Virus record (IMG/VR): IMGVR_UViG_3300045988_082887 | DNA length: 58,395 nucleotides | Strand: one strand, 5' to 3' | DNA from: a virus | Part shown: positions 1 to 55,633 of the stretch, in pieces | Position numbering within the stretch: the first letter of the stretch is position 1 | Layout: each line of letters opens with the position of its first letter | Notes under the pieces: model-generated | What the model was told of the DNA's origin: nothing | The model's input: only the letters and a program-made list of their open reading frames with translations | Database searches by the model: none | Translations under genes and position numbers: made by a program

Positions 1-55
1 AGGAACAACAAACTCTCCCTGCGGGGTACTTGTACCTTCTCCGTAGTGGTAGTTC
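1..55. repeat. 55-nt terminal overlap identical to 58341..58395; marks closure of a circular contig (unique length 58340 bp)
   Basis: AGGAACAACAAACTCTCCCTGCGGGGTACTTGTACCTTCTCCGTAGTGGTAGTTC is present at both window ends. A minus-strand ORF crosses the junction in frame. Confidence 0.95.
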
Positions 56-10053: not shown

Positions 10054-11130
10054 TTAGTAAGCCTTGATACAGTACACAGCGTCCATGCGCTCAAAGGACG
10101 GCAGGACGATTTCGGAGACGTAGATGTTGGTGTTGACAGGATGCACAGTCTGCTCGGTAGTAACAGCAACGCCAGTATTCACAACGGAAACCTGTGCGTT
10201 GGAGATGCCAGCCATCAGATCGGCTTCTTCGGGAGTAGCAACATAGTACATATTGCCCAGAGGGCCAGAAGGAGCCAGTACGACATAGCCATCGTGCAGA
10301 TACTTCTCGGCGGCAGCGGTCTCTTCCGGCTTGAACATCTTGTCATACAGGTGGATACGAATACCGGATGCAGTTTCGACAACGGAACGTGCTTCGGAAT
10401 CAACCAGCACAGCGGTGGTGGTCTTCATAACCGTCAGGAACCGGTTCTTGATTTCATCCGCAGCAATCATCTTGTGGAAAGTGTTGGTGTTCATGTAGGC
10501 ATCGGTGATAATCTCACCAGTGTTTGCCAGCACGGTGTTTGCAGCAGTGGTCATCGTGGCGATGGGGGTTGCAGTGGTAGGAGCGTCCCACTTCTCCTTG
10601 GTAGCCAGAGCCTTGTAATTGGACTGCTGCCAAGTGCCGTCAGGGTCGTAATCGTAGACGTAACTCACGCCGTTGGATTCGATGGAGATGCCGGGCTTGC
10701 CAGTCTTAGGAGCCAGAAGCTGCCACACCATTCGCTCAGGCACAATACGAGCGCCGGTAATAAGCTGTGCGGTATCATCGTAGACACGATTGATAACGTC
10801 TGCCGCAAACTCCTGATTGGTAGCCAGAACAGAGATAATCTTGCGGCGGTCTTCCTCGTCAATGTGAGTGCCCTCACGGAAGAACGGCATACTGGTCTCG
10901 GTCATCTTGATGCCCTGACGAGTACGGAACGTAGCCTTAGTGTCGAACACGCTAGGCTTCAGCGAAACGCCAACGCCCTTGTGACCACGAAGCCACTTCA
11001 GTTCCATACTGACCTTCTTACGGGCAGGGAACAGAGCATCAGAAGCATAGGGCTGCGCATTGGTCGGGTCATTCGTCCAGTAGGCGGCAATCGCAGCAGG
11101 GGAGAAGATTTCATTCAGATTCAGTGCCAT
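10054..11130 (-). CDS. Major capsid protein, lambda gpE-like family
   Basis: 358 aa. The N-terminal LNEIFSP...LFPARK pattern and overall layout match Phage_cap_E. It follows the scaffold and decoration genes. Confidence 0.8.
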   Translation of the reverse strand: MALNLNEIFSPAAIAAYWTNDPTNAQPYASDALFPARKKVSMELKWLRGHKGVGVSLKPSVFDTKATFRTRQGIKMTETSMPFFREGTHIDEEDRRKIISVLATNQEFAADVINRVYDDTAQLITGARIVPERMVWQLLAPKTGKPGISIESNGVSYVYDYDPDGTWQQSNYKALATKEKWDAPTTATPIATMTTAANTVLANTGEIITDAYMNTNTFHKMIAADEIKNRFLTVMKTTTAVLVDSEARSVVETASGIRIHLYDKMFKPEETAAAEKYLHDGYVVLAPSGPLGNMYYVATPEEADLMAGISNAQVSVVNTGVAVTTEQTVHPVNTNIYVSEIVLPSFERMDAVYCIKAY

Positions 11131-12205: not shown

Positions 12206-13714
12206 TTATTTGCCCTCTGTTTCTTTATTGGTGCTGTCAGCCTGTCCGTCCGATGTTTTGTTGGCATCAACAACTTGTTCAGGCTGTTTCTCCTGCGGTC
12301 TCGGAGCTTTGCCGTCCTCGCCCAGCTTGCCAGCGGCAATCAGGAAAGGCACACTTGCTTGATATGCAGCTTCCGGGTCTGTATAAAGGTGAGAAATTTC
12401 AAAAGCCAAATGCGGGTCTGCCGAAGAATCAAGCATTTGGATAAAGACTTGAACCTTACTTTGCAGATTGTCATATTGACGACGCGGCAGTCTTATTTCA
12501 ACGTCACTTGCCATCAGCTTAGAACCAGCCGTATCACGCAGGATTTTCAGCATCACAGACAGGCTTTGGCGTTCAGAGAACTTGAACATATTCTCGTACT
12601 GCTGCGCCCTTGCTTCTGTGTGATTCCAGCCGTTGCGGACAATGACTGCGCCCACGTTGTCAGACGTTGCGTTCTCACTGCCGGTAGCACTAGGCATAGC
12701 AGTCAGGCTGCGGTACACGTTCAACATGGAATCAAGCAAGGTCTGGCTCTGCTGCTGGTCAAGCTCATTGGCAATCTGCGAAACAGATGCGGGCATACCG
12801 GAAGTGGATTTCAGGCACATTGCGCCAAGCTCTTTTACTTGGTCGAGAGCATTCTTGTCCACAAGGCAGTTGGTAAACACCATGATGGACTGAATGAACT
12901 GCGCTACGCCGTCTAGACGATTGCTTTCTAGGTCGTTGATGGCATCCAGAACAGGGATGGCCGGTTCAAACAGACCCATGCGCTCCGGGTTGAGCTTGTA
13001 TTCGACCATCGGCAGCATTCCAAGAGAATGATTCTCCGATTTTGTGACCTTGCCGTTGTCGATTTCAAAGTACTGGTTTGGCGTATACACGCAAATCAGG
13101 TCGTTCAAGTCGTTCTGATAATTGCGCGGGATGTGCAGCACGTTGGCAATCGGCTTGTGTCCGATGCCGGAGTTGTAAATCACATACGCCATGTCGGGGT
13201 CTGGAACATCCACCAACAGGGGCGTTTCGTCCGGGTAATTGCCGCCATACCCCTTGTCAGGAAGAACGATGCGGTATCCCTGTCCGCACTCCAACATCCA
13301 CTGCCAGAGCCGCCGATCAAGCGCGTCCTTGCCCTCATACTGCAAAGCGTTAGACAGCCGGGCGATTTCCTCGCCGTCACCTGTTGCCGTTTCAGACCGC
13401 ACATAAGAGCACGGCGTGCCACTCATATAACCTGTGTAAAAGCCCACGCACTCATTGGCGTGGTTCTCAACAATGCGGTTAGTGATTTCAGCATGGTACT
13501 CCTTTGTGCGGTGGAGGACAGGCTGGCTGCCCAAGTAGTAGTTGTGCAGGAAACGAATCTCATTCTTGTTCAGCAGATGAATAGGCTCTGCCTTTCCCAT
13601 TACCACTTTCAGCACGTTCTCCCGATTGATTTCCGTCTCCGGCGTTTCAATCGGTCTGCGTCCGGTCAGCGGATTATTCAAAAATCCGCCAACGACTATC
13701 TGATACTCAGCCAT
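12206..13714 (-). CDS. Portal protein (SPP1 gp6-like)
   Basis: 502 aa with a typical size and position. RBS is GGAAAGGAGGAA. Confidence 0.85.
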   Translation of the reverse strand: MAEYQIVVGGFLNNPLTGRRPIETPETEINRENVLKVVMGKAEPIHLLNKNEIRFLHNYYLGSQPVLHRTKEYHAEITNRIVENHANECVGFYTGYMSGTPCSYVRSETATGDGEEIARLSNALQYEGKDALDRRLWQWMLECGQGYRIVLPDKGYGGNYPDETPLLVDVPDPDMAYVIYNSGIGHKPIANVLHIPRNYQNDLNDLICVYTPNQYFEIDNGKVTKSENHSLGMLPMVEYKLNPERMGLFEPAIPVLDAINDLESNRLDGVAQFIQSIMVFTNCLVDKNALDQVKELGAMCLKSTSGMPASVSQIANELDQQQSQTLLDSMLNVYRSLTAMPSATGSENATSDNVGAVIVRNGWNHTEARAQQYENMFKFSERQSLSVMLKILRDTAGSKLMASDVEIRLPRRQYDNLQSKVQVFIQMLDSSADPHLAFEISHLYTDPEAAYQASVPFLIAAGKLGEDGKAPRPQEKQPEQVVDANKTSDGQADSTNKETEGK

Positions 13715-14633: not shown

Positions 14634-17303
14634 TTAAAATGGCCTCTTGACAGGCTCGATTTTACTGATTCCGTTGTACAATTCATCGGCAAGCTGTGCC
14701 AGACTATCCGGTGCATCATCGTGCGGAACTTTGCCAAGCTGCGTGAACATCGTCACCTGTTCCATGAACGCTTTGTACTCTTTCGACTGGTGTTTCTCGT
14801 CAAGGAAGTAGAACCGCTTAATGTCCGGCGCATACTGGATGATTCTGGACAGCTTGCTTTGACCACTTGGCGCACGCTGGCTGCGAACAGAACAGTGATA
14901 GCCCTGTTGCCGGAGCTGACTATCCACCACATCACAGTATTCATCACCGCCGTTGTTGGCTTCGCCGCGTACCACGTTGATTTTGTGCTGGATGATTTTG
15001 CCAACGACTTCCGGTCTGGTCACGGTCTTATCGCCGTTATTGAACACAAGGTCTGGGATGAACACGGCATCGCCATACACATAGGCGATAGGACAGGCGG
15101 TGAAGTCACCGCCGCCCCATGCAATATCCATAACCATAAGCTTGCGATCAGGCTCTCCATCAGGCAGAACGCCGTTGAAATACCGCAGTTCATCGGCAGG
15201 GAACAGCAGACCTTCACGCACATAGGGCTTACCCATGTACTTTGCCCACCATGTTGCATCATCAATGCTGGCTTTCATGTCGGCATAGTAGGCGTCATCA
15301 AATCCTACGCCGTAGTCATAGTTGAAGTTGCTGTGTCCGTTCTCGTCCACCGCAGGAATTACCCGGAAGCGGTATTTCGGGTTGTCTGCATACTGGTTCT
15401 GGATGCGCCCCAGAGGGTCAAGAACGTTCCAGCGTGTACCGACCATCAGCTCTAATGCTCCCTGCTTTTTACGGTCTTTCAATTGGTTAAGGTAGGCATC
15501 GTACTTATTGTTTAGGCGCTCAACATTCAGGCTTTCCTCCAAGTCCTCAATCAAGTCATCGCTGTACAGAACGCCGCCCTCACCGATTTCAACAGCGCCA
15601 GTCAGAGTACCGCCAATAGAGCGACAAGTCAGGGTGGGGAATCGCTTCTTTCGATTCAGGTCAACGCTTTCGTCCTTTGCGCTCTTGTCCACAAGCTGAA
15701 CGTCAGGGAAGATTTTTCCCCAGTTGTAGGTAACAGGGTCGGTGATGATGGATAGCACCTCGCCGTAGAAGCCGTTGGTCAGCTTGTCAGAGTGCCCGCT
15801 CATAACCGATGCAACGTCCGGGCGGTTTCCCATAAGCCATGTGATGAAGAAAATGCACAGGGTACTGTTATGGGTAGGAATTAGCCGTTTGCCAGCGCAA
15901 TACACGCCGCCCTCAACCTGAATGCAGTTTCCTTGCTTCGGCTCGATGCGCTCAAACCCGCAAAACGCCACACGGCGAGGTTTGGAAAACTCCTTTAACT
16001 GCTTGCGAGGAACAACGCAAGGAATGGGGCAGGTAGGATTAAAAGAGATGGAATAGACTGTCAGATTGCCTTTAATGCCACTAGACGATACGCGAGGTGG
16101 ATATTCAACCACGCTGCATCTCCATCCAAAGGTAGAAACCAGCGTGACAAAATCATCTCTCATTTGCGGCTCTGTGGTAGAAAAAGCGTACCGATGCTCT
16201 TTTGCCCGTAACGTACCGTCTGTATCGAGCAGACCGGCAAGCAATTCCATACGCTGTGCAATGCTGGCTGTGAAGTATTCTTCTGGGATGTGCTTCACGC
16301 AGCGGCGGTGACTATGGCACATATCGCCTTTTTGAAGTGCTTGTCGCAAACCAGAGAATCCGTAGTATTCAACACCAGTGTCCTTGTGAACCGTATGCCA
16401 ACTAACCGGGTATCCATCGTTAATGACGCGCTCAACAATTACCCGATCACAAGGCGGCTCGCAAATATCCGGGTGTTGGTTGCGGCCATCGCCAAGCCAT
16501 GCGCCCAATGTGTACGGCTCAACAGGCAGTTTCTTATATTCTCCCTCAACAAAATTTTTGAACGGAACCTGATAACAGAATCTTATGCCATCTTTTGTAT
16601 CGGTAACATAATCCTCCATCATCCGCTTGGTTTCGACCACATCAAATCCGTTCTTATGGCGGTTAAAGACCGGCCACTCGTGGTTTTCGTGGCAGTCAAT
16701 GTATGTGCCGTCAGAGAAATGGCATCGCACATCAAGCTGACACTTAGGCGAAACTGCCAGCACCTTCACAAACTGGCCTTTCGGGCTGATAACTTCATCG
16801 CCAACTTGCAAATCGCCGTGATTCTTCCAGCCGTTTCGTGTAAGAATCGGCGTATCATCGCTCAAAGCCTTGCCCACGCGAGCCGGAAGGCTGACCCCCA
16901 AGAAATCTATCCGCTTATAAAACAAGTCCTCTAGGTCATCTGCCAGCACTTTCAGCACTCTGCGTCTGGGCTGATAGAACTTCTTCTCCGGCGCACGGTT
17001 CCATTCAAGGTAGATGCAATAACTGTCGAACACGTCTTTTGCTTCAAACAGGTACGTCCGGCTGATAATGTCATAGACCTTCGCCACGTCCTCGCCTGTT
17101 TTCATCTTGCCCATCATGGCCGCGCAGACAGAGCGCAGCTCACCAGAGTATTTGTAGGCATCGAACCGCTTGCCTTGCGGCAAAGCGTCTCTCAGGTTCA
17201 CGACCGCCTGAAACCAGTCCTCGTAGACCTGTGCTTCGGTCGGATTCTGCTTTGCATACGCTTTGATGCTGTCAATGATGGCGATACACTGCTTTGGCTG
17301 CAT
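14634..17303 (-). CDS. terL: Terminase large subunit precursor carrying an intein
   Basis: The Walker A motif is split: GVSLPARVGK, then the intein, then STLCIFFITW. A C-terminal nuclease-type region is present. The likely start is the ATG at 17303 (MQPKQC...) rather than the track start at 17357. Confidence 0.9.
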   Translation of the reverse strand: MQPKQCIAIIDSIKAYAKQNPTEAQVYEDWFQAVVNLRDALPQGKRFDAYKYSGELRSVCAAMMGKMKTGEDVAKVYDIISRTYLFEAKDVFDSYCIYLEWNRAPEKKFYQPRRRVLKVLADDLEDLFYKRIDFLGVSLPARVGKALSDDTPILTRNGWKNHGDLQVGDEVISPKGQFVKVLAVSPKCQLDVRCHFSDGTYIDCHENHEWPVFNRHKNGFDVVETKRMMEDYVTDTKDGIRFCYQVPFKNFVEGEYKKLPVEPYTLGAWLGDGRNQHPDICEPPCDRVIVERVINDGYPVSWHTVHKDTGVEYYGFSGLRQALQKGDMCHSHRRCVKHIPEEYFTASIAQRMELLAGLLDTDGTLRAKEHRYAFSTTEPQMRDDFVTLVSTFGWRCSVVEYPPRVSSSGIKGNLTVYSISFNPTCPIPCVVPRKQLKEFSKPRRVAFCGFERIEPKQGNCIQVEGGVYCAGKRLIPTHNSTLCIFFITWLMGNRPDVASVMSGHSDKLTNGFYGEVLSIITDPVTYNWGKIFPDVQLVDKSAKDESVDLNRKKRFPTLTCRSIGGTLTGAVEIGEGGVLYSDDLIEDLEESLNVERLNNKYDAYLNQLKDRKKQGALELMVGTRWNVLDPLGRIQNQYADNPKYRFRVIPAVDENGHSNFNYDYGVGFDDAYYADMKASIDDATWWAKYMGKPYVREGLLFPADELRYFNGVLPDGEPDRKLMVMDIAWGGGDFTACPIAYVYGDAVFIPDLVFNNGDKTVTRPEVVGKIIQHKINVVRGEANNGGDEYCDVVDSQLRQQGYHCSVRSQRAPSGQSKLSRIIQYAPDIKRFYFLDEKHQSKEYKAFMEQVTMFTQLGKVPHDDAPDSLAQLADELYNGISKIEPVKRPF
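15867..16868 (-). mobile_element. 334-aa intein (Ala1 ... THN/S) with a LAGLIDADG homing endonuclease, inserted in the terL P-loop
   Basis: Starts ALSDDTPILT and ends IPTHN followed by S. LAGLIDADG motifs are LGAWLGDGR and LLAGLLDTDG. Removing it restores GVSLPARVGKSTLC. Confidence 0.85.
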
Positions 17304-17346
17304 AAAAAAATAGGCACCCCCTACCTGAAAATGTAAAGAGTGCCTA
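17304..17346 (-). terminator. Hairpin plus U-run abutting the terL start (possible terminator or antitermination point)
   Basis: Minus strand TAGGCAC-22 nt-GTGCCTA-TTTTTTT, followed directly by the ATG. Confidence 0.3.
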
Positions 17347-17416
17347 CAACTGCACAAAAATCAAATATTCGGTTTTTATAATGCTGTTTTAGAAATTTTC
17401 TTTATTGACTTAGTTT

Positions 17417-19371: not shown

Positions 19372-19399
19372 ATTATATCAAGATATTTCTGGATGTCAA
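19372..19399 (-). promoter_or_regulatory. Promoter of the HTH-recombinase operon, with 16-bp direct-repeat operators
   Basis: Minus strand TTGACA-16 nt-TATAAT. The 16-bp repeat TCAAGATATTTCTGGA (19378..19393 and 19396..19411) forms the spacer and overlaps the -35. Confidence 0.6.
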
Positions 19400-19445
19400 G
19401 ATATTTCTGGACTTTCTTTGCTTGCGCTTATATTATATATAAATA

Positions 19446-19477
19446 TACTCTAGTATGTATTTATACATACTAGAGTA
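19446..19477. repeat. 32-bp palindrome: perfect 15-bp arms around a 2-nt TT core
   Basis: TACTCTAGTATGTAT-TT-ATACATACTAGAGTA, in the divergent intergenic region next to the recombinase operon. Confidence 0.9.
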
Positions 19478-27214: not shown

Positions 27215-27919
27215 TTACAGGCGATTGAACTCTGGTTCACTGTACTGTTGCTTCTCTTGCTTTCTGTCAATCCACATATCAGCAAAGGCCTTCCAGTTTG
27301 TTATAGGCTTTCCGGTTTTGGTCATCCAACCTGTTCCCTCATAGTAGTTCATGAACCTGCTGGCAAGCCTATTCTCACATCCGGCATCCAAAAAATACTC
27401 GCTCACATCCTCGAAGTCCGGCGTGCTGGCGTTCCCATCGGGCGGGTCGCCCGCTTTCTTAATAACTTTTTTTCTTTTCTTTTCTTCTATATTAAGGAGG
27501 TGAACGATTGTTCCCCTCACAGGTGAAGCATCGTTCCCCTCAGAGGTGAATGATTGTTCACCTCCCTTTTCGCTCTTTGACGATTCTTTCGGCACTTTGA
27601 CGTATATCTTATCGGGCTTGTTCTTTCCTTCACGCTTGCGCTCGATCAACCCGGCTTCTTCCAGCTCTTTCAGAGACTTCTTGACCCATCGTTCTGTGAA
27701 TCCAGTATCGGCAGCAAGGTCTTTGATGGGATACACGATGTATACTCGCCCTAGTTGGTCAGCAAACTTTCCGCTTCTGCTTGCCCTCTGTGACGACCTT
27801 GCACGATTGAACAGGTAAATGTAAACAATTTTCTCTGTTGGGCTAACGCCAATAGTCGAGAGGAATCGAGGGTAGACCATGTACCCATTGACCTTTGTAT
27901 CGGCTGTCATGTATTCCAT
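27215..27919 (-). CDS. Replication initiator, RepA_N-like winged-helix N-terminus with a DnaD-like C-terminus
   Basis: YPRFL...SPTEKIVYIYLFNRA...GRVYIVYPIKDLAADTGFTERWVKKSLKELEEAGLIERK matches the RepA_N pattern. The ATG at 27919 follows AGGAGG. Confidence 0.7.
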   Translation of the reverse strand: MEYMTADTKVNGYMVYPRFLSTIGVSPTEKIVYIYLFNRARSSQRASRSGKFADQLGRVYIVYPIKDLAADTGFTERWVKKSLKELEEAGLIERKREGKNKPDKIYVKVPKESSKSEKGGEQSFTSEGNDASPVRGTIVHLLNIEEKKRKKVIKKAGDPPDGNASTPDFEDVSEYFLDAGCENRLASRFMNYYEGTGWMTKTGKPITNWKAFADMWIDRKQEKQQYSEPEFNRL

Positions 27920-28116
27920 TTTTTCCTCCTGCAATAGTCGTAGACCTCTACAATGCGCTCACAGCACCGTAAAGCCGTGCCAGCGCTGTTTTCTGTGTTC
28001 AGTCGATAGGTTTTGCCATCTGACGCTAAAAGCGTTTGTAGGGCTTCTGTGTGCGTATATGTAAAAGGCTGCCATTGCTGACAGCCCATACGCTCATATT
28101 CTGTATTTGCTTTCAA
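27907..28116 (-). CDS. Hypothetical protein (69 aa)
   Basis: ATGA overlap with the upstream lipoprotein gene. Confidence 0.45.
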   Translation of the reverse strand: MKANTEYERMGCQQWQPFTYTHTEALQTLLASDGKTYRLNTENSAGTALRCCERIVEVYDYCRRKKWNT

Positions 28117-28389: not shown

Positions 28390-29595
28390 TCAATCCATCC
28401 AAGTATACTCTTGGAACCGTTGAATCTGCTTGTTAAACGTGATGGGAAGGTCGCCTATCCCACCTTCCTTGTTCTTGCTCAGCCGAAACAGGTACTTGTC
28501 GGGGTTGTCGCCGGACAGAAGGATGATTGCATCTGCGTCCTGTTCAATCTGTCCGCTCTCTCGCAAGTCGGAGTTGGTAGGCGTTGCTCCGGGCTTGGAT
28601 GGGTTTCGATTGAGCTGTGCCAGTGCCACCACAACAATGCCTGTGGTCTGTGCCAGTTCGTGCAGGGCAATGGATATGGCTGTAATGGCGGCATATCTGT
28701 CCTTTGCGCCTGTTTCGTGGATGAGTTGAAGATAGTCTACGAAGATGACCTGAGCCTTTTTACGGAGAGCCTGCGCCTTCATCCACGCCACGTTCTTTCC
28801 GGCAGCGGAGCGGATATATAAGGGCATCTTCATGTTCTTTGCCTGTCCGTCAATCTCATTCAAGCTGACCGCCTTATTTTTCACCGTGTCCAGAGGGCAG
28901 TATATTTGATTAGCCATCAGACGTGCGCCCAGCTTGCGTTTGCTGGTTTCCAAGCTGAAATAGTACACAGTGTAGTCCTGCTTTGCCATGCTTGCTGCTA
29001 TTTGCAAGGACAGAGCTGTTTTGCCCGCAGACGGTCTGCCACCGATGATAATAAAATCACCCGGTGAGATGTGCAGCGCTTCATCCAGACGCTCTAGGCC
29101 TGTCTTTATATACACAGGCTTCTCGTCCATGTGAAGCAAATAGTCGTTCAGCACATCCTCGTATGTCCACGCATCTTCTTCCTCAGCTTTCAGGCTCATT
29201 GCTTCGCCCATCTGCTGGTAAATGTCTGATAGATCAGAATAGTCGGTAAGTTCGCTGGTCATCTGAAATGCCAGACCTTGCACACGAGTGAGTGCAGCTT
29301 GTTCTCTGATAAGCTGTGCCCAACGCTGCATCTGCTCCCTGTCAATTCGCACACACTCTGATTCACAGGTTTGTACACACGCCAAGAGCGTCTGCGCTAC
29401 GTCTTGATGCTGCGTGTTTATCTCGACTATATCTATCTTACCCCTAGCCGTCCAATAGCCCTGAACAGCCGCAAAAGCGTCTCTCAGCTCAGGCCTGAAT
29501 AAGTCAAGTTCAAGGTCTGGTATGATTTCATCCACAACGCCCGGCTTGCAGAGCATCAGCGCACCGATAAATACCGTTTGAACGTCCATTGTCAT
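28390..29595 (-). CDS. dnaB: Replicative DNA helicase, DnaB family
   Basis: Walker A motif GGRPSAGKTALSLQIA, the IFVDYLQLI motif and an N-terminal DnaB domain. Confidence 0.9.
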   Translation of the reverse strand: MTMDVQTVFIGALMLCKPGVVDEIIPDLELDLFRPELRDAFAAVQGYWTARGKIDIVEINTQHQDVAQTLLACVQTCESECVRIDREQMQRWAQLIREQAALTRVQGLAFQMTSELTDYSDLSDIYQQMGEAMSLKAEEEDAWTYEDVLNDYLLHMDEKPVYIKTGLERLDEALHISPGDFIIIGGRPSAGKTALSLQIAASMAKQDYTVYYFSLETSKRKLGARLMANQIYCPLDTVKNKAVSLNEIDGQAKNMKMPLYIRSAAGKNVAWMKAQALRKKAQVIFVDYLQLIHETGAKDRYAAITAISIALHELAQTTGIVVVALAQLNRNPSKPGATPTNSDLRESGQIEQDADAIILLSGDNPDKYLFRLSKNKEGGIGDLPITFNKQIQRFQEYTWMD

Positions 29596-45237: not shown

Positions 45238-45548
45238 TTGTCGAATTATCGTTGTTTATGATGAACATCTTGTACACCTTTCAACGAATTGATTTCTACT
45301 TGTGATGCAAACACTTCTCTTGTTGTGCAAATAAATAACGTTAATACGTTATGTTATCGCTCACTATAGCAAAATTATATTTTGATTGTCAAAACAAAAA
45401 CCTATGCACATTGAGTACACCGTTGCGTAAAATTGACTTTCATTTTGATAAAATAAGAAAAAATTAGAGATTATGGAACTTCTTCTTTTGTTTAGTAGAA
45501 GATTATTTAACTCTTGTTTATAATCTTGTTTATATATAATGTAAGAAT

Positions 45549-45643
45549 GGGTACGAAATGTGCATGATGGGGTACGAGATGTGCATAAGCGTGTACGAGA
45601 TGTGCGTCAAATAAGGGGGTCTAGGTGTACAAGATGTGCATGA
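45549..45643 (+). repeat. Four iterons, core GTAC(G/A)A(A/G)ATGTGC(A/G)T
   Basis: GTAC starts at 45551, 45572, 45593 and 45627 (spacing 21, 21 and 34 nt), preceded by an AT-rich region at 45240..45548. Confidence 0.85.
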
Positions 45644-45685
45644 GCCAATATAAGTGAATAAAACTATTGACGTGTACACCATTAT

Positions 45686-46798
45686 GTGATAAAATTAGTG
45701 TACAGAGAAAGGAGATGTACACTATTGGCAGACCTTTATGAAAATAACTTGATCGAAAAAAGCAAGGCGCTTGTTTGGGCAGAGTTTAATGATTACACTG
45801 TTGGAGAGCTGCGGCTTTTGGAAGTGTATCTTAGCCGTATCAACCCTAGAGATGAAAAATCTAGTGAAGTCAAGTTTACCCTTTCGGAATATTGCGATTT
45901 GCTTGGACTGCGTGTTAATAGCAGGAACATCGAGAAGCAAATCGAACATTTTCTTGGCAACGTTGTGACGCTTCCTCTTAATGACGATGGAAGCGAGTAC
46001 AATATGTATACGCTTTTTACGAAAGCAAGCGTTACGATTGATAAGAACTTAGGAATGTACGTTGTTACTCTCTGTTGCAACCCTGAATTGAGAAGTGTAT
46101 TCTTTGATATTGCCAAGAGCGGTTATATCAAGTATAGACTTCGCTACACGGTAAAAATGAAATCGCAGTATAGCATTTTACTTTATTCGATGCTGCGAGA
46201 TATGATGAATCGCGGCGGAGACCATTTTGATATTAGCATCAATCGGCTTCGTTCACATCTCGGCGCAAATGCAGGATGCTATGAAAGTTTCAAGAACTTT
46301 AGACGGAGAGTTTTGGATGCAGCGGTTGAAGAAATCAATGATGTGTCCGACATTTATGTTACTTACGAAAAAATCTCGTTTGGAAACAAGGCGGTTGCGA
46401 TTTCTTTTGCCGCTAAGAAAAAAGATGAAAAGCCTGTCGCCGAATTAAAGGCGAAAGAATATAAAGAAGAACTTCCATTCGATGATGACATTCCTGTCGG
46501 CAAACCGAATAAAAAGGCTTACAGTGATGTAGATTGGGAGAATATAGCGCCAGACCTTGAGAAATCAGAGTGCATCGGCATTGCAAGAATGGTTGGGAAA
46601 AGAATGGCCGAGAGCTTCCCTACTATTAAGGCTCATAAGAAGAAAGCTGCCGTTGTAAACATTGTGAGTAATGCGTACAATAAAATTTTAAGAGACAAGA
46701 AGGAATGGCCTGATAACCCTGCTGGCTATCTTTACAGAGTTATCGAAAACTCTGACTTAGACGAGTTTTCGACTTTTGACGATAGCTTCTTGAAGTAG
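45686..46798 (+). CDS. Rep_3-family (RepB-like) plasmid replication initiator
   Basis: NNLIEKSKAL...TVGELRLLEVYLSRINP and two winged-helix-like halves, with iterons immediately upstream. The start is either the GTG at 45686 or the TTG at 45725. Confidence 0.75.
   Translation: MIKLVYRERRCTLLADLYENNLIEKSKALVWAEFNDYTVGELRLLEVYLSRINPRDEKSSEVKFTLSEYCDLLGLRVNSRNIEKQIEHFLGNVVTLPLNDDGSEYNMYTLFTKASVTIDKNLGMYVVTLCCNPELRSVFFDIAKSGYIKYRLRYTVKMKSQYSILLYSMLRDMMNRGGDHFDISINRLRSHLGANAGCYESFKNFRRRVLDAAVEEINDVSDIYVTYEKISFGNKAVAISFAAKKKDEKPVAELKAKEYKEELPFDDDIPVGKPNKKAYSDVDWENIAPDLEKSECIGIARMVGKRMAESFPTIKAHKKKAAVVNIVSNAYNKILRDKKEWPDNPAGYLYRVIENSDLDEFSTFDDSFLK
45698..45722. promoter_or_regulatory. Inverted repeat GTGTAC-N13-GTACAC spanning the rep RBS (candidate autoregulatory operator)
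   Basis: Read directly. It shares the GTAC core with the iterons. Confidence 0.45.
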
Positions 46799-46830
46799 TC
46801 ATACACAGTAAATAAAGAAAGAGTGATAAA

Positions 46831-47604
46831 ATGGCAAAAATCATAGCTATCGCCAACCAGAAGGGCGGCACAGGAAAGACTACCACAAGCACCTGTCTGG
46901 CTGGTGCATTGCAGTTGCTTGGCAAGAAGGTGTTGCTGGTGGACTGCGATGCACAGTGCAACGCAACGGACACCTACGGCGCACAGACAGAGGACGTGTG
47001 TACCCTGTTCGATGTAATGACCCAGCAGGGTACGGTAGAGGAAGGAATACAGCACTGCGAAGCCGGTGACATTCTGCCGTCAGACAATGCATTGAAGGAC
47101 ATTGACGAGCAGCTTGTTCGGGACATTGGTAAGAACTTCCGGCTGCGAGAAGCACTGGAATCCGTGTCTGCACAGTACGATTACATTGTTTTGGACACTC
47201 CCCCGCAGCTCGGTCTTGCGCTTGTAAACGCTCTGATCGCTGCCAACAGCATCATCGTACCCATCACAGCAGACCGCTATGCGCTTGCCGGACTGAGCCA
47301 GCTTTCGCAGACCATTGGTGACGTTCGTAGATACTTCAACCCAACTTTGAAAATTGAAGGTCTACTTCTGAACCAGTACAAGAGCCGTGAGAACCTGTCC
47401 AAAGAGGTCGTAGAGCAGCTCCCTGTGATTGCACAAAGCATGGGAACAAGGCTGCTTGACGTGAAGATTAGACCGTCTATGGGCGTTCGTAAAGCGCAGG
47501 CAGAGCGGCACAGCCTGTTTAGCGGTGACACGGCAAAGAGTACCAGCGCAGAGGATTTCAAGGCGTTGGCGCAAAAAATTGTAGAGGGGGATAAAAATGA
47601 ATGA
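46831..47604 (+). CDS. parA: ParA/Soj-type partition ATPase
   Basis: Deviant Walker A motif IAIANQKGGTGKTTT and the LVDCDAQ motif. Confidence 0.9.
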   Translation: MAKIIAIANQKGGTGKTTTSTCLAGALQLLGKKVLLVDCDAQCNATDTYGAQTEDVCTLFDVMTQQGTVEEGIQHCEAGDILPSDNALKDIDEQLVRDIGKNFRLREALESVSAQYDYIVLDTPPQLGLALVNALIAANSIIVPITADRYALAGLSQLSQTIGDVRRYFNPTLKIEGLLLNQYKSRENLSKEVVEQLPVIAQSMGTRLLDVKIRPSMGVRKAQAERHSLFSGDTAKSTSAEDFKALAQKIVEGDKNE

Positions 47605-47995
47605 TATATACCCGCACCTTGTAGAAATGACGTGCATCGAAGATATAAGACGGGTTTATTTCTTAGATCTTGGTGTTTCATTTAATGAATTGTCGGATGA
47701 AGAAAAAGAGCTTGCATATAATTCTCAGCAATACCTCGCTAAAAAATACTGTGAAAAACTGAAAGAAAAGCTTTCCGAGAATCAGTGGGCGCAGTCGAAG
47801 CGCAAACTTCCAAATGAATCAAACAAATACGTTATTGGATTTAGTGAAGACGAATACGATGTAGAAATCGTAAGATACGAAAGAGGTCTTAAAAAGTGGA
47901 TAGGCAAAGATGGGAAATTGCACAACATTACACATTGGAAGTCTTTACCGGCTGTACCAGACCTCGAAGATGAAGATTGGGAGGAAGAGGAATGA
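47597..47995 (+). CDS. Hypothetical protein with a DUF551-like C-terminus and an acidic tail
   Basis: ITHWKSLPAVP. Overlaps the parA stop by 8 nt. Confidence 0.5.
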   Translation: MNDIYPHLVEMTCIEDIRRVYFLDLGVSFNELSDEEKELAYNSQQYLAKKYCEKLKEKLSENQWAQSKRKLPNESNKYVIGFSEDEYDVEIVRYERGLKKWIGKDGKLHNITHWKSLPAVPDLEDEDWEEEE

Positions 47996-48564
47996 AATCA
48001 ACCAGCAAAAAATCCACAGGCTTGCTTGGCGGGTTTGATTTCCAGCCTATTTTTTCGGAACAGACATTAAGCCGAAGTGAGCCAAAGGAAGAAGAAGTAA
48101 GCCAAGCAAAGCCGAACGAAGCCGAACAAGCACAGATTAAGCCAAGTGAAGCTACAGACAGCCGTACACAGCCTAATGAAGCACAGTTAAGCAGTATTAA
48201 GCCGAAGCAAGCCAAAGACAGCGAAACGCAGCCGAACAATGCCGTAGTAAGCGAAAGCAAGCCGAAGAAGCTGAAACAGGCGAAAGAAGTTCAACGTCTT
48301 ATCGAACAAGGCGATGTTCCCGGCGCACTAGCCGAAGCTGGCCTGACAAAGAAAAAAATCCCGATGCCGGAATCGCATCAGGGCGTTGCAAGCGGTGACG
48401 GTAAACGTTCTAAGCGCATTACCATCCTTATGAGTGAGGAAGAACGCAAGTACATCAACCGTGAAGCCAGACGGCACGGAATGACTATTGGACAGTTCGT
48501 GTACGCTCTGGCAGTTGCGGCGGCAGAGGGTAAGATTGAACTGGAGGATTTCTTAGATGAATGA
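47992..48564 (+). CDS. RHH DNA-binding protein with a repetitive N-terminal region (candidate centromere-binding ParG-like partner)
   Basis: C-terminal RITILMSEEERKYINREARRHGMTIGQFV is an RHH. The N-terminus carries KP(N/S)EA-type repeats. ATGA overlap with the upstream gene. Confidence 0.55.
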   Translation: MKSTSKKSTGLLGGFDFQPIFSEQTLSRSEPKEEEVSQAKPNEAEQAQIKPSEATDSRTQPNEAQLSSIKPKQAKDSETQPNNAVVSESKPKKLKQAKEVQRLIEQGDVPGALAEAGLTKKKIPMPESHQGVASGDGKRSKRITILMSEEERKYINREARRHGMTIGQFVYALAVAAAEGKIELEDFLDE

Positions 48565-49438
48565 TAGTGAACGACACCTTATTCGATTTGTTTGCGATGG
48601 TGATATGCGAAACGCGCAAAAAGCTGTTAAAATCATTTTGAATTCCATATCATCCAAAAAAGATGAGCAGTTCAAAGAAAATATGTTTCGCAAGTTGGAA
48701 AGCAAAAGAGAATTTATTGAATTGCCATATAACTTACAGCATCTTTTGATTGCAGAGAATACAGAAGAATTTCCGGAAGCAAGATTCCTTCTTAGGAACG
48801 AAGAAAAAAGTATAACGCAGAAAACTGTTGCCATTTATCGAGCATCTGAAAAATTAAATGAAATGGGCATTCCTTACTTGCCAGCATTGATGCTTTATGG
48901 GAAAAGCGGATGCGGAAAAACCATGCTGGCTAGGTATATTGCGCATAAAGCAAAACTTCCGTTTTTGAGGATTCAATTTTCAAGTCTAGTTGATTCGCAC
49001 TTAGGGCAAACTCAATCTAACCTTGCGAGAATTTTTGATTATGTGAAAACCGCTCCTTGCGTTCTTTGTTTTGATGAAATAGATGCGGTCGGAATGGCTC
49101 GTGGGCAAAAAGATGACGTTGGGGAAATGAACCGTGTGGTTATTGCGATTATGCAAGAAATGGATAGATTGCCGAACAATGTCATCATTATCGGAACGAC
49201 AAACCGATTTGATAGGATTGACCCTGCGCTTACAAGAAGATTTCCGTTGCAATACGAATTAAAGCCGTTGTGCCGTGCGGATGCAGAAATACTTTCCAAA
49301 AGGTTCTTTGAATATGCAGGAGCACAATATGAAAACATAGCTTATGAAGATCACGTCCCCGCATCTACGGTTATCAAAGAATGTACAGAACGAATTGTAA
49401 ATCAAGTTCTGAATCAAGAGGACTTCTTGGAGGATTGA
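48557..49438 (+). CDS. AAA+ ATPase (classic clade)
   Basis: Walker A LYGKSGCGKT, Walker B LCFDEID, and IIGTTNRFDRIDPALTRRF (second region of homology). Confidence 0.8.
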   Translation: MNDSERHLIRFVCDGDMRNAQKAVKIILNSISSKKDEQFKENMFRKLESKREFIELPYNLQHLLIAENTEEFPEARFLLRNEEKSITQKTVAIYRASEKLNEMGIPYLPALMLYGKSGCGKTMLARYIAHKAKLPFLRIQFSSLVDSHLGQTQSNLARIFDYVKTAPCVLCFDEIDAVGMARGQKDDVGEMNRVVIAIMQEMDRLPNNVIIIGTTNRFDRIDPALTRRFPLQYELKPLCRADAEILSKRFFEYAGAQYENIAYEDHVPASTVIKECTERIVNQVLNQEDFLED

Positions 49439-49716: not shown

Positions 49717-50061
49717 ATGAGAATAAAAGTTGGAGATAGAGTTTACGATAAAGTATCTCAACGATACGGTATCGTGAAAAAATTTGTTGGCAAAGATTTT
49801 GTTGGAATGTTCTACGTAAAAGTCGACTGTTCCGAGGAAAGCGAATGGCGATTTCCAGAAGATATTGAATTGGCAGATTCTTCAGAAAAAGATAGCCATG
49901 ATTCTAATTCTATGAAAATAATCTATTGCAAGGATTGTGAACTTTGGAATACATGGGACAAGCAAGGAGAATTGTGCAGCTGCGCTCATTTTACTCTTGA
50001 TAATTCTAATGCTGTATATACCAAGCCAGAGGATTTTTGTAGTTATGCAGAACAACGATAA
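49717..50061 (+). CDS. Hypothetical protein
   Basis: The ATG at 49717 lies 6 nt after AAGGAGA. Confidence 0.5.
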   Translation: MRIKVGDRVYDKVSQRYGIVKKFVGKDFVGMFYVKVDCSEESEWRFPEDIELADSSEKDSHDSNSMKIIYCKDCELWNTWDKQGELCSCAHFTLDNSNAVYTKPEDFCSYAEQR

Positions 50062-50091
50062 AAACTAAGTTCTAAAGTTAAAATAGCAGAA

Positions 50092-50131
50092 CCCCTGTGC
50101 GGTCATTGTGACTACACAGGGGCTCTTTTTT
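50092..50131. terminator. Bidirectional rho-independent terminator
   Basis: CCCCTGTG-15 nt-CACAGGGG followed by CTCTTTTTT, between convergent operons. Confidence 0.8.
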
Positions 50132-50768
50132 ACTTATCAGCAATGCAATCCCAGTAGAGATACGCCTTGCCGTCCACAGCGTCCGTGTCATCAAAGAACG
50201 CCTTCGCCATGTCAGCGTAGAAGCCCGGAGTGTCAACGGACTGGCGCTTTGCGACTTGACAATAATCCGAGTACATCATGTTCATGACAGCCCAGAAATC
50301 GTTCGGGTCACAGGTGATATTGCGCTGTTTGGCAACGTCCTGTGTCTGTTCCAGCGTCCAGTGACAGCCCTTCGTGCCGTCAGCATTTACCATGCTGTCG
50401 CACCATTCCTCTGCTTCATCGTGGGTGAGGTGCTTGCGTGGCATCTTGATGGAGCGGCTGTCCGCACCGCCATGCTCATACTGCCCAGACCGCTTGTCCC
50501 AGTCTCCGTTCTGCGAGAAGCCAATCTGCGGCATCTTGCGCCCATATTCAACGTCAGGGTAGCGGGGGATAGGGTAGGGGTCGATGTAACGGTTCTCCTC
50601 CTGCGGATAGTAAGGATAGCGGTCATTGCCATCTTCCAGCTTGCGCAGACGGCGTTCCAGCTCACGTTCCCTGCGGTCACGTTCTTCCTCAAGGCGGTCA
50701 CGTTCCGGCTCACGGTCTTTATCGTGGTCGCGGAGCATCATCATGCGGCGAAAATTAGTCTTGCCCAT
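50130..50768 (-). CDS. Hypothetical protein with a charged RE-rich N-terminus
   Basis: 212-aa ORF, last gene of the late transcript. Confidence 0.55.
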   Translation of the reverse strand: MGKTNFRRMMMLRDHDKDREPERDRLEEERDRRERELERRLRKLEDGNDRYPYYPQEENRYIDPYPIPRYPDVEYGRKMPQIGFSQNGDWDKRSGQYEHGGADSRSIKMPRKHLTHDEAEEWCDSMVNADGTKGCHWTLEQTQDVAKQRNITCDPNDFWAVMNMMYSDYCQVAKRQSVDTPGFYADMAKAFFDDTDAVDGKAYLYWDCIADK

Positions 50769-50782
50769 AATCTAATACCTCC

Positions 50783-51154: not shown

Positions 51155-51239
51155 AGTATTTTCCTCCTAAAAAATCAGGGACAGAGGTGTCTTACCCCTG
51201 CCCCGATGGTTCACCCGGTGTTATCGGGGAGTGTGTAGG

Positions 51240-52112
51240 TTAGCAGCAGCCGCAGCAGTTCACGCCCACGTTGGGGTTTGCCACCTGATAAGCGGGAATC
51301 GGACGAGGATTGACCCGATTCAGGATGGTGTCGGTCTGGGCGCTCATCGCGGTGGTCAGAAGTGCATTCTGCCGATCCTGAGAAGCGGCGAACTTCAGGC
51401 TCTGGTTCTCAGCGGTCAGAGTGGCAATCTTATCCTGCGTGAAGTAGTCCATCATGCTGCGGAAGTTGGCGTTGCAGTTGTCCACGATGGCGCGGGCATT
51501 GTCTGCGATAGCCTGACGGGTAGCGCAGTCCTGCTGCGCAATGGTGTACTTCAGGTCGCCGATGAGCTGCTTGTTCTCGCAGCAGCAAGATGCCAGCTGC
51601 GTGGAAAGTGCGGTCTGACCCGCCTGCCGTGCGTTGCCCTCCTGCATGATGGCGAGGCTGATGGCGTTGTCGCCGTTGGACACGCTGCGTTCCAGACCGT
51701 TCACGAGCTGCGCGTTCTGGTAGCCGAGCTGACAGATGGCGCTGTTCACGCCCGCAAAGCCGTTTGCGATGTTGGCGTTGACGCCGTTCATCTGCACCAG
51801 CTGGTCATAGCCCAGAGAGCAGATGCCGCTCTGGATGCCAGCCAGAGAACGGGAAGTGTCCTGCTGGTAGAAGCCCTCCGACAGCGCCGCGCGAGTATCT
51901 GCGCCGCCCTGACCAGTTGCGCCAGTGCCGACCAGATAGGGGATGTAGCTGTTCATGCCGTTGTCACCACCGTTTCGACCGTAGCCGTTTGTACCCCAGC
52001 CGAAGATGATGGCGAGGATGATAACCGCCCACAGACCTTCGTTGCCGAAAAATCCGCCGTTGTTATTGCCGCCGTCCTGCCCAGCCAGATAGCCAGTTGC
52101 AAAATCGTCCAT
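51240..52112 (-). CDS. Membrane-anchored Cys-rich protein ending in CCGCC
   Basis: Gly/Asn-rich N-terminus, one TM segment, the repeated motif C(S/Q)LGY, then CCCENK and a C-terminal GVNCCGCC. Confidence 0.55.
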   Translation of the reverse strand: MDDFATGYLAGQDGGNNNGGFFGNEGLWAVIILAIIFGWGTNGYGRNGGDNGMNSYIPYLVGTGATGQGGADTRAALSEGFYQQDTSRSLAGIQSGICSLGYDQLVQMNGVNANIANGFAGVNSAICQLGYQNAQLVNGLERSVSNGDNAISLAIMQEGNARQAGQTALSTQLASCCCENKQLIGDLKYTIAQQDCATRQAIADNARAIVDNCNANFRSMMDYFTQDKIATLTAENQSLKFAASQDRQNALLTTAMSAQTDTILNRVNPRPIPAYQVANPNVGVNCCGCC

Positions 52113-52234
52113 AACAAAACTCCTTTCAGTTTTGCGTTATGCCATCCCACCGCCGTGTGCGGTGGGCGAAGCCAAATAAAAGCGGTTTTTATCAAGTCCG
52201 CAAAACTGAGAAGCGTTTCGCTTAGAGGGATGCT

Positions 52235-52486
52235 TTACCGGGGCAGCGTCAGGTTCAGAGCACTTGCCAGTTGGTTCAGGTCGATGCCGCGCTCTTTGGC
52301 GAGGTTCTGTGCCATTGTCCTGAGCTGCGTTTCGTTTTTGCCCTGAATCAGGTTCAAGCCCTGCATGATGGGGGCATTCTGCCCGCTCAACTGCTGGATA
52401 AGCCCCATAGGGTTCTGCCCGGCACGAGCCAGATTTGCAAGCTGCATGATAGGGCTGTGAGTAATCATATCAAACGGAGATGGCAT
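52235..52486 (-). CDS. Hypothetical protein (83 aa)
   Basis: ORF within the operon. Confidence 0.5.
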   Translation of the reverse strand: MPSPFDMITHSPIMQLANLARAGQNPMGLIQQLSGQNAPIMQGLNLIQGKNETQLRTMAQNLAKERGIDLNQLASALNLTLPR

Positions 52487-52489
52487 TGC

Positions 52490-53008: not shown

Positions 53009-53134
53009 AATACATCCCTCCTATTGCGCTCAGTGTACCGCACTGGCAAAAAACGAGAGACAACGAACGCACAACGAAGGGCAAAAAAGAAAAGCGCCCA
53101 CACGGAAAAATCCGCATGAGCGCTTAAAGAGTGC

Positions 53135-54457: not shown

Positions 54458-54715
54458 TTACTCTCCTCTCTCTTTTTCAAGGTCTGCAATGCGGTGGTTT
54501 GCCACTTTCATCTGCTCTTCAAGCACCGGGATGCGCTGGGCGAAATTGTTGTGTGTCCGGACTTCCCGGGTCAGCTCTTCCAGCTTGGTTTCGGTCACAG
54601 CCTGCTGCTTGTCCAGTTTGGCATCCATGCTCTGGGCGGTGTGGTTGTTAGAGACGACCACGCCGATCAGGCTCAGACCGCCGGTGATAATGGCTACGAT
54701 GATTGCTTCACTCAT
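54458..54715 (-). CDS. Small TM + coiled-coil lysis-associated protein (XhlA-like)
   Basis: N-terminal TM segment; HNNFAQRIPVLEEQMKVANHRIADLE. Confidence 0.45.
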   Translation of the reverse strand: MSEAIIVAIITGGLSLIGVVVSNNHTAQSMDAKLDKQQAVTETKLEELTREVRTHNNFAQRIPVLEEQMKVANHRIADLEKERGE

Positions 54716-55497
54716 GCGCCCTCCCGAAGACGGGTCAGACCCTTCTTGCGGATGATACGGGGGTAGTTGACGGTGGTCACGTTGAGGTCAACGTTGCGGG
54801 AGATGCCCGGCACACGGCCCTCGCTGGTGTGCTGGTGAGCGTTGTAGTGATATCCAACGGCGGGAGTCTTGCCCGTGTAGTCGGCCAGCCAGATGTCCCA
54901 ACGGTTTGCCAGGCGGCCCATGTCTAGTTCCATGTTGGAGTAGTGGGTGTAGGTGTACAGCTGGGCGTAAAAGCCCATCTTTTCCACCTGTTCCAGCGCA
55001 TAGGCGGTGAGGTTGGTGAGGTCGAGGGTGCTCATTGGCTTGAGCTTGTTTTCCTCCACGTCCACCGCGATGGGCATGGTCAGCTCCTTGCCGTAGACCG
55101 CCTGCCGCACAAGGGCAAGCTCTGCATCGGCCATGGCCTCGCTGGTAGCGTAGGTGTAGTAGTACACGCCCACGTCCAGCCCGGCAGCCCGGGCGTTGCT
55201 GTAGTTGGTCTCAAAGGTCGGGTCGATGTACAGCCCGTCTGCCCGCTTGGAAAGCTTGCGGTTGGTGGAGACCGTCTTGAGCATCGCACCCTTGTAGCCT
55301 GCGGCCTTGACCTTTGCCCAGTCGATCGAGCCCTGATAGCGGCTCACGTCCACATAGCGGTAAGGCGGGTCGCCGTCCCAGCCGGTCACGGTGTCCACTG
55401 TGGACACGTCCGGTGCAGGGGCAGGCTTTTCTTTGTCGGCGTTGTCACCGGCAGCGTGGGAGAGCGCAGAAAAGATATCCCGCAGGAAATCAAGCAT
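54712..55497 (-). CDS. Endolysin, GH25 muramidase
   Basis: VDVSRYQGSIDWAKVKAAGYKG, GVYYYTYA, PIAVDVEE. The start is the ATG at 55497 (or 55512). Confidence 0.85.
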   Translation of the reverse strand: MLDFLRDIFSALSHAAGDNADKEKPAPAPDVSTVDTVTGWDGDPPYRYVDVSRYQGSIDWAKVKAAGYKGAMLKTVSTNRKLSKRADGLYIDPTFETNYSNARAAGLDVGVYYYTYATSEAMADAELALVRQAVYGKELTMPIAVDVEENKLKPMSTLDLTNLTAYALEQVEKMGFYAQLYTYTHYSNMELDMGRLANRWDIWLADYTGKTPAVGYHYNAHQHTSEGRVPGISRNVDLNVTTVNYPRIIRKKGLTRLREGA

Positions 55498-55633
55498 TAC
55501 TTTCCACCTCATAAAAACCCTCCTCCGTCAGCTTTTTCATTACGGCATCCTTGTACCGGTCAGGCACGTTGTCGATGGTAAAAGCGCCGTCAAAGCGGTG
55601 CAGCTTAATTTGGGTCACATAGAACAAAACCAT
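55490..55633 (-). CDS. 47-aa hypothetical protein, not in the ORF track
   Basis: AAGGAGG RBS 6 nt upstream. MVLFYVTQIKLHRFDGAFTIDNVPDRYKDAVMKKLTEEGF...; its stop overlaps the endolysin start. Confidence 0.5.
   Translation of the reverse strand: MVLFYVTQIKLHRFDGAFTIDNVPDRYKDAVMKKLTEEGFYEVESNA

Follow-up and report, generated by a model that had tools for sequence, protein, structure and literature searches.

How might a phage that encodes no recognisable integrase be perpetuated in its lysogens? This question is raised by IMG/VR virus record IMGVR_UViG_3300045988_082887, a stretch of 58,395 nucleotides of viral DNA (referred to here as the window), in which positions 45240-48564 hold an iteron-containing region and the genes for a Rep_3-type replication initiator (Rep), a ParA protein and a putative ribbon-helix-helix (RHH) protein. 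An earlier note on this DNA had proposed that the phage is maintained in lysogeny as an autonomously replicating and partitioned plasmid, and our analysis supports this proposal: hidden Markov model searches recognise both Rep and ParA, no integrase was detected, Rep and its sites co-vary among relatives, the homologs of Rep are of plasmid type and the related contigs are of unit size. The domain assignments, the repeat architecture, the Rep-site co-variation, the lack of any integrase and the unit-sized contigs were computed directly. On the basis of the Rep_3 and ParA domains, the anatomy of the origin, the co-varying Rep sites, the lack of an integrase and the presence of a second replication module, the window probably represents a temperate siphovirus-type phage whose prophage is kept as a circular plasmid of low copy number, i.e. 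a phage-plasmid; we would put the probability of this reading at roughly 80%. Phage-plasmids are well established: they need a replicase and a partition system but no integrase, and may possess dimer-resolving recombinases (PMC7969092). They have been reported to be common among the phages of gut Firmicutes, accounting for 6.2% of viral operational taxonomic units (10.1101/2025.02.07.636470). The lifestyle is therefore already known; the widespread family to which the window belongs is previously undescribed, and our literature search returned general phage-plasmid papers and none on this family.

The replication initiator and its origin

The rep gene starts with the TTG codon at 45725, 10 nt past an AGGAG motif, and gene callers return the same protein length in relatives (coordinates of all features are given in Table 1). 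Both winged-helix domains of Rep score well over their Pfam cut-offs: Rep3_N (WH1, PF01051) is matched with an E-value of 1.6e-21 and 77.6 bits (gathering score 22.4), and Rep3_C (WH2, PF21205) with 6.4e-15 and 55.6 bits (gathering score 21.1). The Rep_3 assignment of the earlier note, which had called for a search with PF01051, is thus upheld, and Rep residues 30-229 additionally match the solved structure of RepE from plasmid F (1REP, E-value 2.5e-6).

The 490-nt gap ahead of rep contains the iterons, the core of which reads GTAC[GA]A[GA]ATGTGC[AG]T: with up to 3 mismatches allowed, the 15-mer core is found six times in this gap and three times in the other 58 kb. Four of the copies are direct repeats at the place where the earlier note had described four iterons, but two distal copies in inverted orientation had been overlooked. 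The AT-rich region had been recognised correctly, since this stretch holds the lowest-GC 100-nt interval of the whole genome (mean GC content 48%); TCTTGTTTATA is present twice within it, and a motif adjoining the iterons, CTTGTTTATATATA, is kept in other Rep types. The predicted rep promoter, which is found at the same position in the other Rep types, is overlaid by putative operator sites composed of half-iterons. One of these is the inverted repeat GTGTAC-N13-GTACAC that had been noted around the ribosome-binding site (RBS) of rep: it was located at 45698-45722, where it encloses the AGGAG motif at 45710-45714.

Judged by its homologs, Rep is a plasmid-type initiator, the nearest relatives of which outside the phage family are found on small plasmids. 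Within the family, Rep is 96-100% identical on ten IMG/VR contigs of 52-63 kb, and homologs with approximately 50% identity are present on many more contigs of 55-62 kb with unchanged gene order. Beyond it, proteins with 40-45% identity to Rep are encoded on a 6.9-kb plasmid of Mediterraneibacter gnavus and on 2-6 kb plasmids with a Mob_Pre relaxase from gut Clostridia, one of the latter having been placed in the same bin as a [Clostridium] leptum genome; in total, homologs of Rep are found in 989 PLSDB plasmid records as against 5 phage records.

It could be argued that the Rep_3/iteron unit is nothing other than the lytic or early origin of the phage, with ParA performing some other role and no plasmid state existing, and there are indeed phages with partition-like genes for which a plasmid state is unproven, for example the SPO1-like Bacillus phages (PMC7969092). 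We regard this as improbable. A DnaD/O-like initiator and a DnaB helicase are encoded in the minus-strand early operon, apart from the Rep_3 module, and the existence of this separate module means that Rep_3 is not needed for lytic growth. Furthermore, rep is oriented in the same direction as the cI-like gene, from which the minus-strand early genes diverge, and hence runs against the early genes; its promoter is predicted to be autoregulated; and the closest relatives of Rep are those on small plasmids described above. Finally, the repressor-like helix-turn-helix (HTH) genes and two Rha/ANT antirepressors indicate a temperate phage without an integrase.

Apparent exchange of the origin and rep among relatives

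At least four Rep types, which are 48-66% identical to one another, are present in near-identical relatives of the window. The iterons are specific to each type and retain the same layout in the three types with readable upstream sequence, with 3-5 direct copies at 21-22 bp and at least 2 inverted distal copies: the iteron core is GTACGAGATGTGCAT in the Rep type of the window (4 direct and 2 inverted distal copies), GTACAAAAAGTGGAG in the type of L018 (5 direct, 2 inverted distal) and GGGGGACGAAATGAC in the type of L022 and L115 (3-4 direct, 2-3 inverted distal), whilst in case of the fourth type (L118) 69 nt of upstream sequence are covered. All four types exhibit an inverted pair of half-iterons at the -35 element of the rep promoter that co-varies with the iteron, and in the three types other than that of the window this pair brackets the -35 element. 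ParA and the RHH protein are 96-97% identical across genomes that differ in Rep type, and DNA homology between the types ends at approximately 45280 and resumes at 46828. Given these breaks and the conservation of ParA and the RHH protein, the whole unit of origin and rep behaves as an exchangeable cassette, the left boundary of which is the stop codon of the cI-like gene. Such exchange may serve to diversify incompatibility amongst members of the family.

The same sharp breaks in homology on either side of the module (45280 and 46828) would also be seen if the contig were an assembly chimera of a plasmid fragment and a phage, but this explanation is effectively refuted already. The order of the cI, origin-rep, ParA, RHH, lysis and tail genes is maintained in every related contig that was read across, i.e. 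approximately 30 loci from IMG/VR, ENA, Logan, JGI and NCBI that were produced by different assemblers, with more than 100 further contigs sharing other genes of the family. In addition, the genome closes on itself through a tail gene: bases 1-55 of the window are identical to bases 58341-58395, representing the assembly overlap of a closed circle of 58,340 bp, and a minus-strand gene for a 959-residue tail protein continues across the junction, thus nothing is missing at the point of closure. The genome is therefore closed, as the earlier note had stated.

The partition genes and a candidate centromere

The protein encoded downstream of rep had been described as a deviant-Walker ParA, and the profile searches that were proposed to verify this were clearly positive: ParA matches AAA_31 with an E-value of 2e-54 (residues 2-175), CbiA and phrog_164 ("ParA-like partition protein") with 1.4e-58. 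Its Walker A motif is of the deviant form (NQKGGTGKTT, with KGGTGKT as residues 11-17), and by sequence the protein is nearest to ParA proteins of the Soj type. The RHH protein found further downstream has an invariant N-terminal peptide (KK..GLLGGFDFQP), which is followed in the AlphaFold2 model by approximately 90 disordered residues and then by the C-terminal domain, in which a strand-like segment precedes two helices (residues 142-178; predicted local distance difference test score 70-84); no match to this protein was obtained by sequence in the PDB. A homology search with this protein returned 834 matches falling into hundreds of clusters at 90% identity, among which nearly all variation resides in the linker, with no change in either the N-terminal peptide or the putative RHH domain.

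The DNA that encodes this linker exhibits a regular structure of its own, consisting of twenty successive 10-nt units that each start with AGCC or a near variant thereof. This array is by a wide margin the strongest short-period phased motif of the genome, with 11 in-phase copies per 200 nt compared to at most 5 elsewhere. As 10 is not a multiple of 3, a given DNA word falls into each of the three reading frames in turn, which gives rise to a disordered linker with a periodicity of 10 residues. No other repeat structure exists in the conserved ParA-RHH block, with none located upstream of parA, and no conserved non-coding DNA was found to flank either parA or the RHH gene, the adjoining slots differing among relatives. 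In 16-17 distinct but mutually related copies of the gene, the diversity of the array tracks the 10-nt phase and not the codon phase: it is 0.02-0.07 at unit positions 1-3, 5 and 9 and 0.21-0.26 at positions 4 and 6, and the ratio of changes at third to second codon positions is approximately 2 in the array whereas it reaches approximately 10 in the C-terminal domain. With stratification by codon position, a permutation test returned p ~0.0006, the true phase scoring better than each of the nine shifted ones. In one relative the array is shorter by exactly 60 nt, a loss that leaves both reading frame and phase intact. Based upon this phase-tracking conservation, the position of the array as the sole one of the block and the 60-nt deletion, we propose with moderate confidence that the array is a candidate centromere. 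A survey of 80 loci around distant ParA genes for comparable arrays gave a single match, a heptad repeat beside a chromosomal ParB that is not relevant here.

Joining these two aspects leads to a wider proposal that we put forward tentatively and hold to be slightly short of an even chance: that the partition site is located inside the gene of the very protein that binds it, as some 20 AGCCRAAnnA units that span three frames, specify a disordered linker and are conserved at the DNA level, and that the cassette between 45281 and 46827 is exchanged as a unit, by which incompatibility would be changed and the partition system kept. The candidate centromere within a gene and the exchange of the cassette are what is unusual about this family.

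Search for an integrase and the small serine recombinase

No tyrosine or large serine integrase was found among approximately 55 open reading frames (ORFs) searched with Pfam, ten of which were also searched with PHROGs, in agreement with the earlier note, although very divergent enzymes could escape such a scan. The set comprised ORFs of at least 134 residues from a greedy, non-overlapping gene set together with selected smaller ones, with most antisense ORFs inside identified genes left out. The only recombinase is, as had been claimed, a serine enzyme of the resolvase type, the size of 218 residues being returned by gene callers and the Resolvase family (PF00239) being matched with 1.8e-21; proteins of 221 residues starting with V or M had no counterpart in the records. 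This protein consists of the resolvase catalytic domain alone, has the size of the resolvase/invertase class and does not possess the large C-terminal recombinase and zinc-ribbon domains of a large serine integrase; among the PHROGs it is closest to "DNA invertase" (2.9e-40), compared to 1e-15 for an integrase. Its sequence is 96-100% identical in 188 viral contigs.

The crossover sites of serine recombinases consist of two half-sites around a 2-bp core. Such an arrangement is offered by a 32-bp palindrome that is present as a single copy in the genome, approximately 50 nt further upstream of the promoter of the recombinase operon, and that is unchanged in 59 of 80 relatives (loci L124-L203); the tandem 18-nt repeats overlapping this promoter are identical in 55 of the 80. 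Three of the 80 differ solely at the centre of the palindrome, with TT in place of AA, which would correspond to an inversion of the one element of the site that is asymmetric. A whole-genome repeat scan revealed no inverted repeat exceeding 25 nt within or near the tail-fibre genes, and thus dimer resolution fits better than an inversion that alters host range: recombinase and palindrome together form a candidate dimer-resolution system.

An alternative assignment would make these two elements an integrase and its phage attachment site (attP), such that the phage integrates, either always or in turn with existence as a free molecule, and Rep and Par act only transiently. Conservation of the recombinase across the viral contigs and of its palindromic site could be understood in this manner, and some phage-plasmids do oscillate between both states (PMC7969092); the restriction of the enzyme to a resolvase domain and its far stronger match to invertases speak against it. 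The size of the contigs bears upon this alternative more directly.

Contig population and host

Related contigs in several hundred independent assemblies from the human gut pile up at 55-61 kb, with none longer than 200 kb, and gene positions are circularly permuted among them. This is the pattern of a free 58-kb replicon or of virion DNA rather than that of an integrated prophage in bulk metagenomes. The exact recombinase protein was encountered in 318 sample blocks, the longest contig being 50-200 kb in 94 and above 200 kb in none; the equivalent figures for the exact ParA protein are 23 and none out of 62 blocks. Of the 106 IMG/VR contigs containing a conserved 20-mer of the recombinase gene, 3 exceed 63.1 kb. 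Scanning the 185,579 species genomes of the GTDB species set with Rep revealed no relative, no DNA match was found in PLSDB and the portal protein of the closest cultured phage is 32% identical.

Several observations weigh against maintenance as a plasmid. No clear DnaA box is apparent in the origin, where matches are found only with 1-2 mismatches and the best of these falls within an iteron. The earlier designation of the ParA partner as an RHH protein stands with regard to topology and to the best structural neighbours, given that the top Foldseek matches are RHH proteins (CopG, AtaR, Arc, NikA and AmrZ), but not with regard to scores: these matches are non-significant with E-values of approximately 1, and the Pfam NikA-like family is matched with 25.6 bits, under its gathering score of 27. 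Virion DNA or lytic replication would equally give contigs of unit size. The scan of the same 185,579 genomes with ParA gave at best 49% identity, mostly to chromosomal Soj-type loci, with a carrier not found. Lastly, six contigs of the family are larger than the unit (L115, L121, L310, L204, L221 and L273, with 150, 105, 89, 85, 76 and 66 kb, respectively), of each of which at most 21 kb is covered, all of it phage. The 85-kb contig contains a contig-specific 40-mer and the family-conserved recombinase 20-mer once each, and hence is not a simple two-lap concatemer; it did not appear among the approximately 80 rows listed from a further pattern scan with at least 120 matches.

The oversized contigs, and the extra DNA in the 85-kb contig that is not a plain second lap, also count in favour of integration. 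Set against these are the absence of any contig above 200 kb from all 318 sample blocks with the exact recombinase, the lack of a relative in the 185,579 species genomes and the fact that no host flank is seen in any stretch examined. Together with the architecture of the recombinase, these findings make integration unlikely, and a lysogenic state as a free, partitioned plasmid remains the reading that we favour.

Proposed mechanism

From these features we infer the plasmid state itself, the biochemical steps that would sustain it and which sites would act as centromere and in resolution. Rep would be produced from its own sigma-A-type promoter, bind the four phased iterons and open the adjoining stretch of 20% GC, at which point theta replication would start. 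When bound to the inverted half-iterons over promoter and RBS, Rep would repress its own gene, whilst looping or the control of copy number is probably aided by the two distal inverted iterons. ParA and the RHH protein would segregate the plasmid copies, with RHH dimers most likely binding the 10-bp array within their own gene and the invariant, lysine-containing N-terminal peptide stimulating the ATPase activity of ParA. The serine recombinase would resolve plasmid dimers at the palindrome and perhaps also circularise incoming DNA. Lytic growth would be left to the separate module comprising the DnaD/O-like initiator and DnaB.

Comparison with known systems

In functional terms the window is a P1-like solution constructed from unrelated parts. 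P1, which relies on RepA and iterons at oriR, ParAB-parS, Cre-loxP and a separate lytic origin, also belongs to the temperate tailed phages, has no chromosomal integrase and uses an iteron-controlled initiator for the prophage state, and it likewise combines ParA-driven partition, a recombinase suited to dimer resolution and a second replication system for lytic growth. There is, however, no sequence relationship between the two: the host of the window is probably a bacterium of the Gram-positive type from the gut, the initiator is a RepE-like Rep_3 protein, ParA is paired with a small putative RHH protein where P1 has an HTH ParB, a small enzyme of the serine class stands in place of a tyrosine recombinase, and the candidate centromere is located inside a gene.

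With the Rep_3 theta replicons (RepE of F, RepA of pPS10, pi of R6K and the small Rep_3 plasmids with Mob_Pre) the window shares an initiator composed of WH1 and WH2, tandem iterons of 21-22 bp beside an AT-rich stretch and inverted half-iterons over the rep promoter, and it is the Rep proteins of the small gut plasmids that are 40-45% identical to that of the window. Differences lie in the embedding of the putative replicon in a 58-kb phage, in the additional ~110 residues at the C-terminus of Rep, in the two distal inverted iterons and in the lack of a clear DnaA box. The partition genes resemble type Ib systems (ParF-ParG of TP228 and delta-omega of pSM19035) in combining a small ParA that has the deviant Walker motif but no N-terminal HTH with a small partner whose N-terminus is flexible and whose C-terminus forms an RHH domain, the latter near-threshold in the window. 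The centromere expected for such systems is an array of short phased repeats; unlike in type Ib systems, no array is found upstream of parA and the sole array, the candidate site, lies inside the RHH gene. Moreover, the ParA of the window is nearest to Soj-type proteins, and a variable, unrelated ORF is often inserted between parA and the RHH gene. The Cluster A mycobacteriophages offer a further parallel, as a partition cassette takes the place of the integration cassette and the prophage is extrachromosomal (PMC7969092), but they possess an HTH ParB and no dedicated iteron plasmid initiator, and infect actinobacterial hosts.

Genome content and further features

Annotation of the genome by profile searches with Pfam and PHROGs confirmed that a complete siphovirus structural and lysis gene set is present, as the earlier note had described: large terminase (TerL), portal, capsid, tape measure and tail proteins and a GH25 lysin were all identified (Table 1), together with baseplate proteins, ERF, SSB and HNH proteins. 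No gene of a size suitable for a sheath protein is located between the capsid and tape measure genes, with which a siphovirus fits. Lysogeny-type genes are represented by the two Rha/ANT antirepressors and several HTH proteins of the Cro/CI type, so that the functions of packaging, head, tail, lysis and lysogeny control are all covered.

Table 1. Position and properties of features in the window.
Feature	Position	Strand	Description
Rep_3 initiator, 357 aa	45725..46798	+	WH1, WH2 and C-terminal extension of ~110 aa
Four direct iterons	45548..45645	+	spacing 21, 21 and 34 bp
Distal inverted iteron, copy 1	45261..45279	-	95% complementary to fourth iteron; counterpart in other Rep types
Distal inverted iteron, copy 2	45404..45421	-	brackets the AT-rich stretch together with the direct iterons
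AT-rich stretch, candidate DNA-unwinding element	45440..45545		19.8% GC; adjoins iterons
rep promoter (predicted)	45667..45695	+	TTGACG-17-TAAAAT with TG extension; 10/12 consensus matches
Half-iteron operator sites (putative)	45672..45722		GTGTACAC palindrome in promoter spacer and GTGTAC-N13-GTACAC over RBS
ParA, 257 aa	46831..47604	+	deviant Walker A; no N-terminal HTH
DUF551 ORF, 132 aa	47597..47995	+	variable slot: other gene or none in relatives
RHH protein, 190 aa	47992..48564	+	candidate centromere-binding protein; N-terminal peptide, disordered linker, putative C-terminal RHH domain
Candidate centromere	48070..48269		20 units with a 10-bp period (AGCCRAAnnA consensus); in linker-coding part of RHH gene
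Small serine recombinase, 218 aa	18454..19110	-	candidate multimer resolvase; Resolvase PF00239 1.8e-21
HTH-like ORF, 73 aa	19123..19344	-	first gene of recombinase operon; weak HTH_37 and Xre-like matches; also in relatives
Two 18-nt tandem repeats	19375..19410	-	overlap TTGACA-17-TATAAT consensus promoter of recombinase operon
32-bp palindrome	19446..19477		15-nt arms, central AA; candidate crossover site
cI-like HTH_3 protein, 197 aa	44644..45237	+	Pfam HTH_3 1.3e-9; 197 aa also by gene callers in relatives
DnaD/O-like initiator	27215..27934	-	lytic-type replication gene
DnaB helicase	28390..29595	-	lytic-type replication gene
Tape measure protein, 1381 aa	2800..6945		Pfam/PHROGs
Major capsid protein	10054..11130		Pfam/PHROGs
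SPP1-type portal	12206..13714		Pfam/PHROGs
TerL	14634..17357		Pfam/PHROGs
GH25 lysin	54712..55512		Pfam/PHROGs
IetA-like AAA ATPase	48557..49438	+	Pfam AAA 3e-32; PADLOC IetA 5.6e-55

Two plus-strand ORFs were rejected as genes: that at 46..741 is antisense to the gene of the 959-residue tail protein, and that at 51231..52346 is antisense to conserved minus-strand genes. The latter falls within a block at 50000-56000 that has a GC content of 54-59% compared to the genome mean of 48%, contains long spurious plus-strand ORFs and consists of conserved minus-strand genes from that of a DUF7841 protein to the lysin.

Downstream of the RHH gene, the IetA-like gene, named after a component of the IetAS defence system, is cargo in a variable slot outside the maintenance machinery: it is present or absent among relatives, in which the slot can be occupied by Bro-N, RHH_1 or other genes, and no gene for an IetS protease follows it in the window. 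TerL is 889-907 residues long here owing to an in-frame insertion of approximately 1.02 kb (about 15870-16888) with a match to LAGLIDADG_3, whilst three relatives (L204, L221 and L313) are without the insertion and have a TerL of 554 residues; this looks like a presence/absence polymorphism of an intein or homing endonuclease. The two Rha/ANT antirepressor paralogs, which lie on opposite strands and 21 kb apart, contain a 126-nt inverted repeat with 83% complementarity (20755-20880 and 41839-41964), recombination between the copies of which would invert the early region. The early operon also codes for a protein of the SPFH/Band 7 family (287 residues, 32609-33472), which is unusual cargo for a phage. 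In Rfam, three matches lie above the respective gathering scores: a DUF3800-VIII RNA at 53311-53374 (-), a RAGATH-5 RNA at 25509-25559 (+) and a tRNA-like element at 14152-14221 (-), the last of which is not called by ARAGORN. Two types of gene were seen in relatives and are absent from the window, namely anti-defence-like genes (Acb2/Tad1 hairpin and Tad2-like) beside the portal gene (L313, 15922-16182; L314, 16626-16850) and a reverse-transcriptase ORF adjoining the tail-fibre region (L117, 11736-12932), possibly part of a diversity-generating retroelement.

Implications

A phage of this kind would be miscalled as virulent by lifestyle predictors that depend on the presence of an integrase. 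Given its occurrence in several hundred human-gut assemblies, the family provides a concrete and common example of gut phage-plasmids, which may form a sizeable share of the temperate phages in this environment. The near-identical genomes that differ only in their Rep/iteron cassette constitute a natural series for the evolution of incompatibility, and the compact segment at 45240-48564 offers a candidate cassette for replication and stability in gut Clostridia, a group in which genetic manipulation is difficult.

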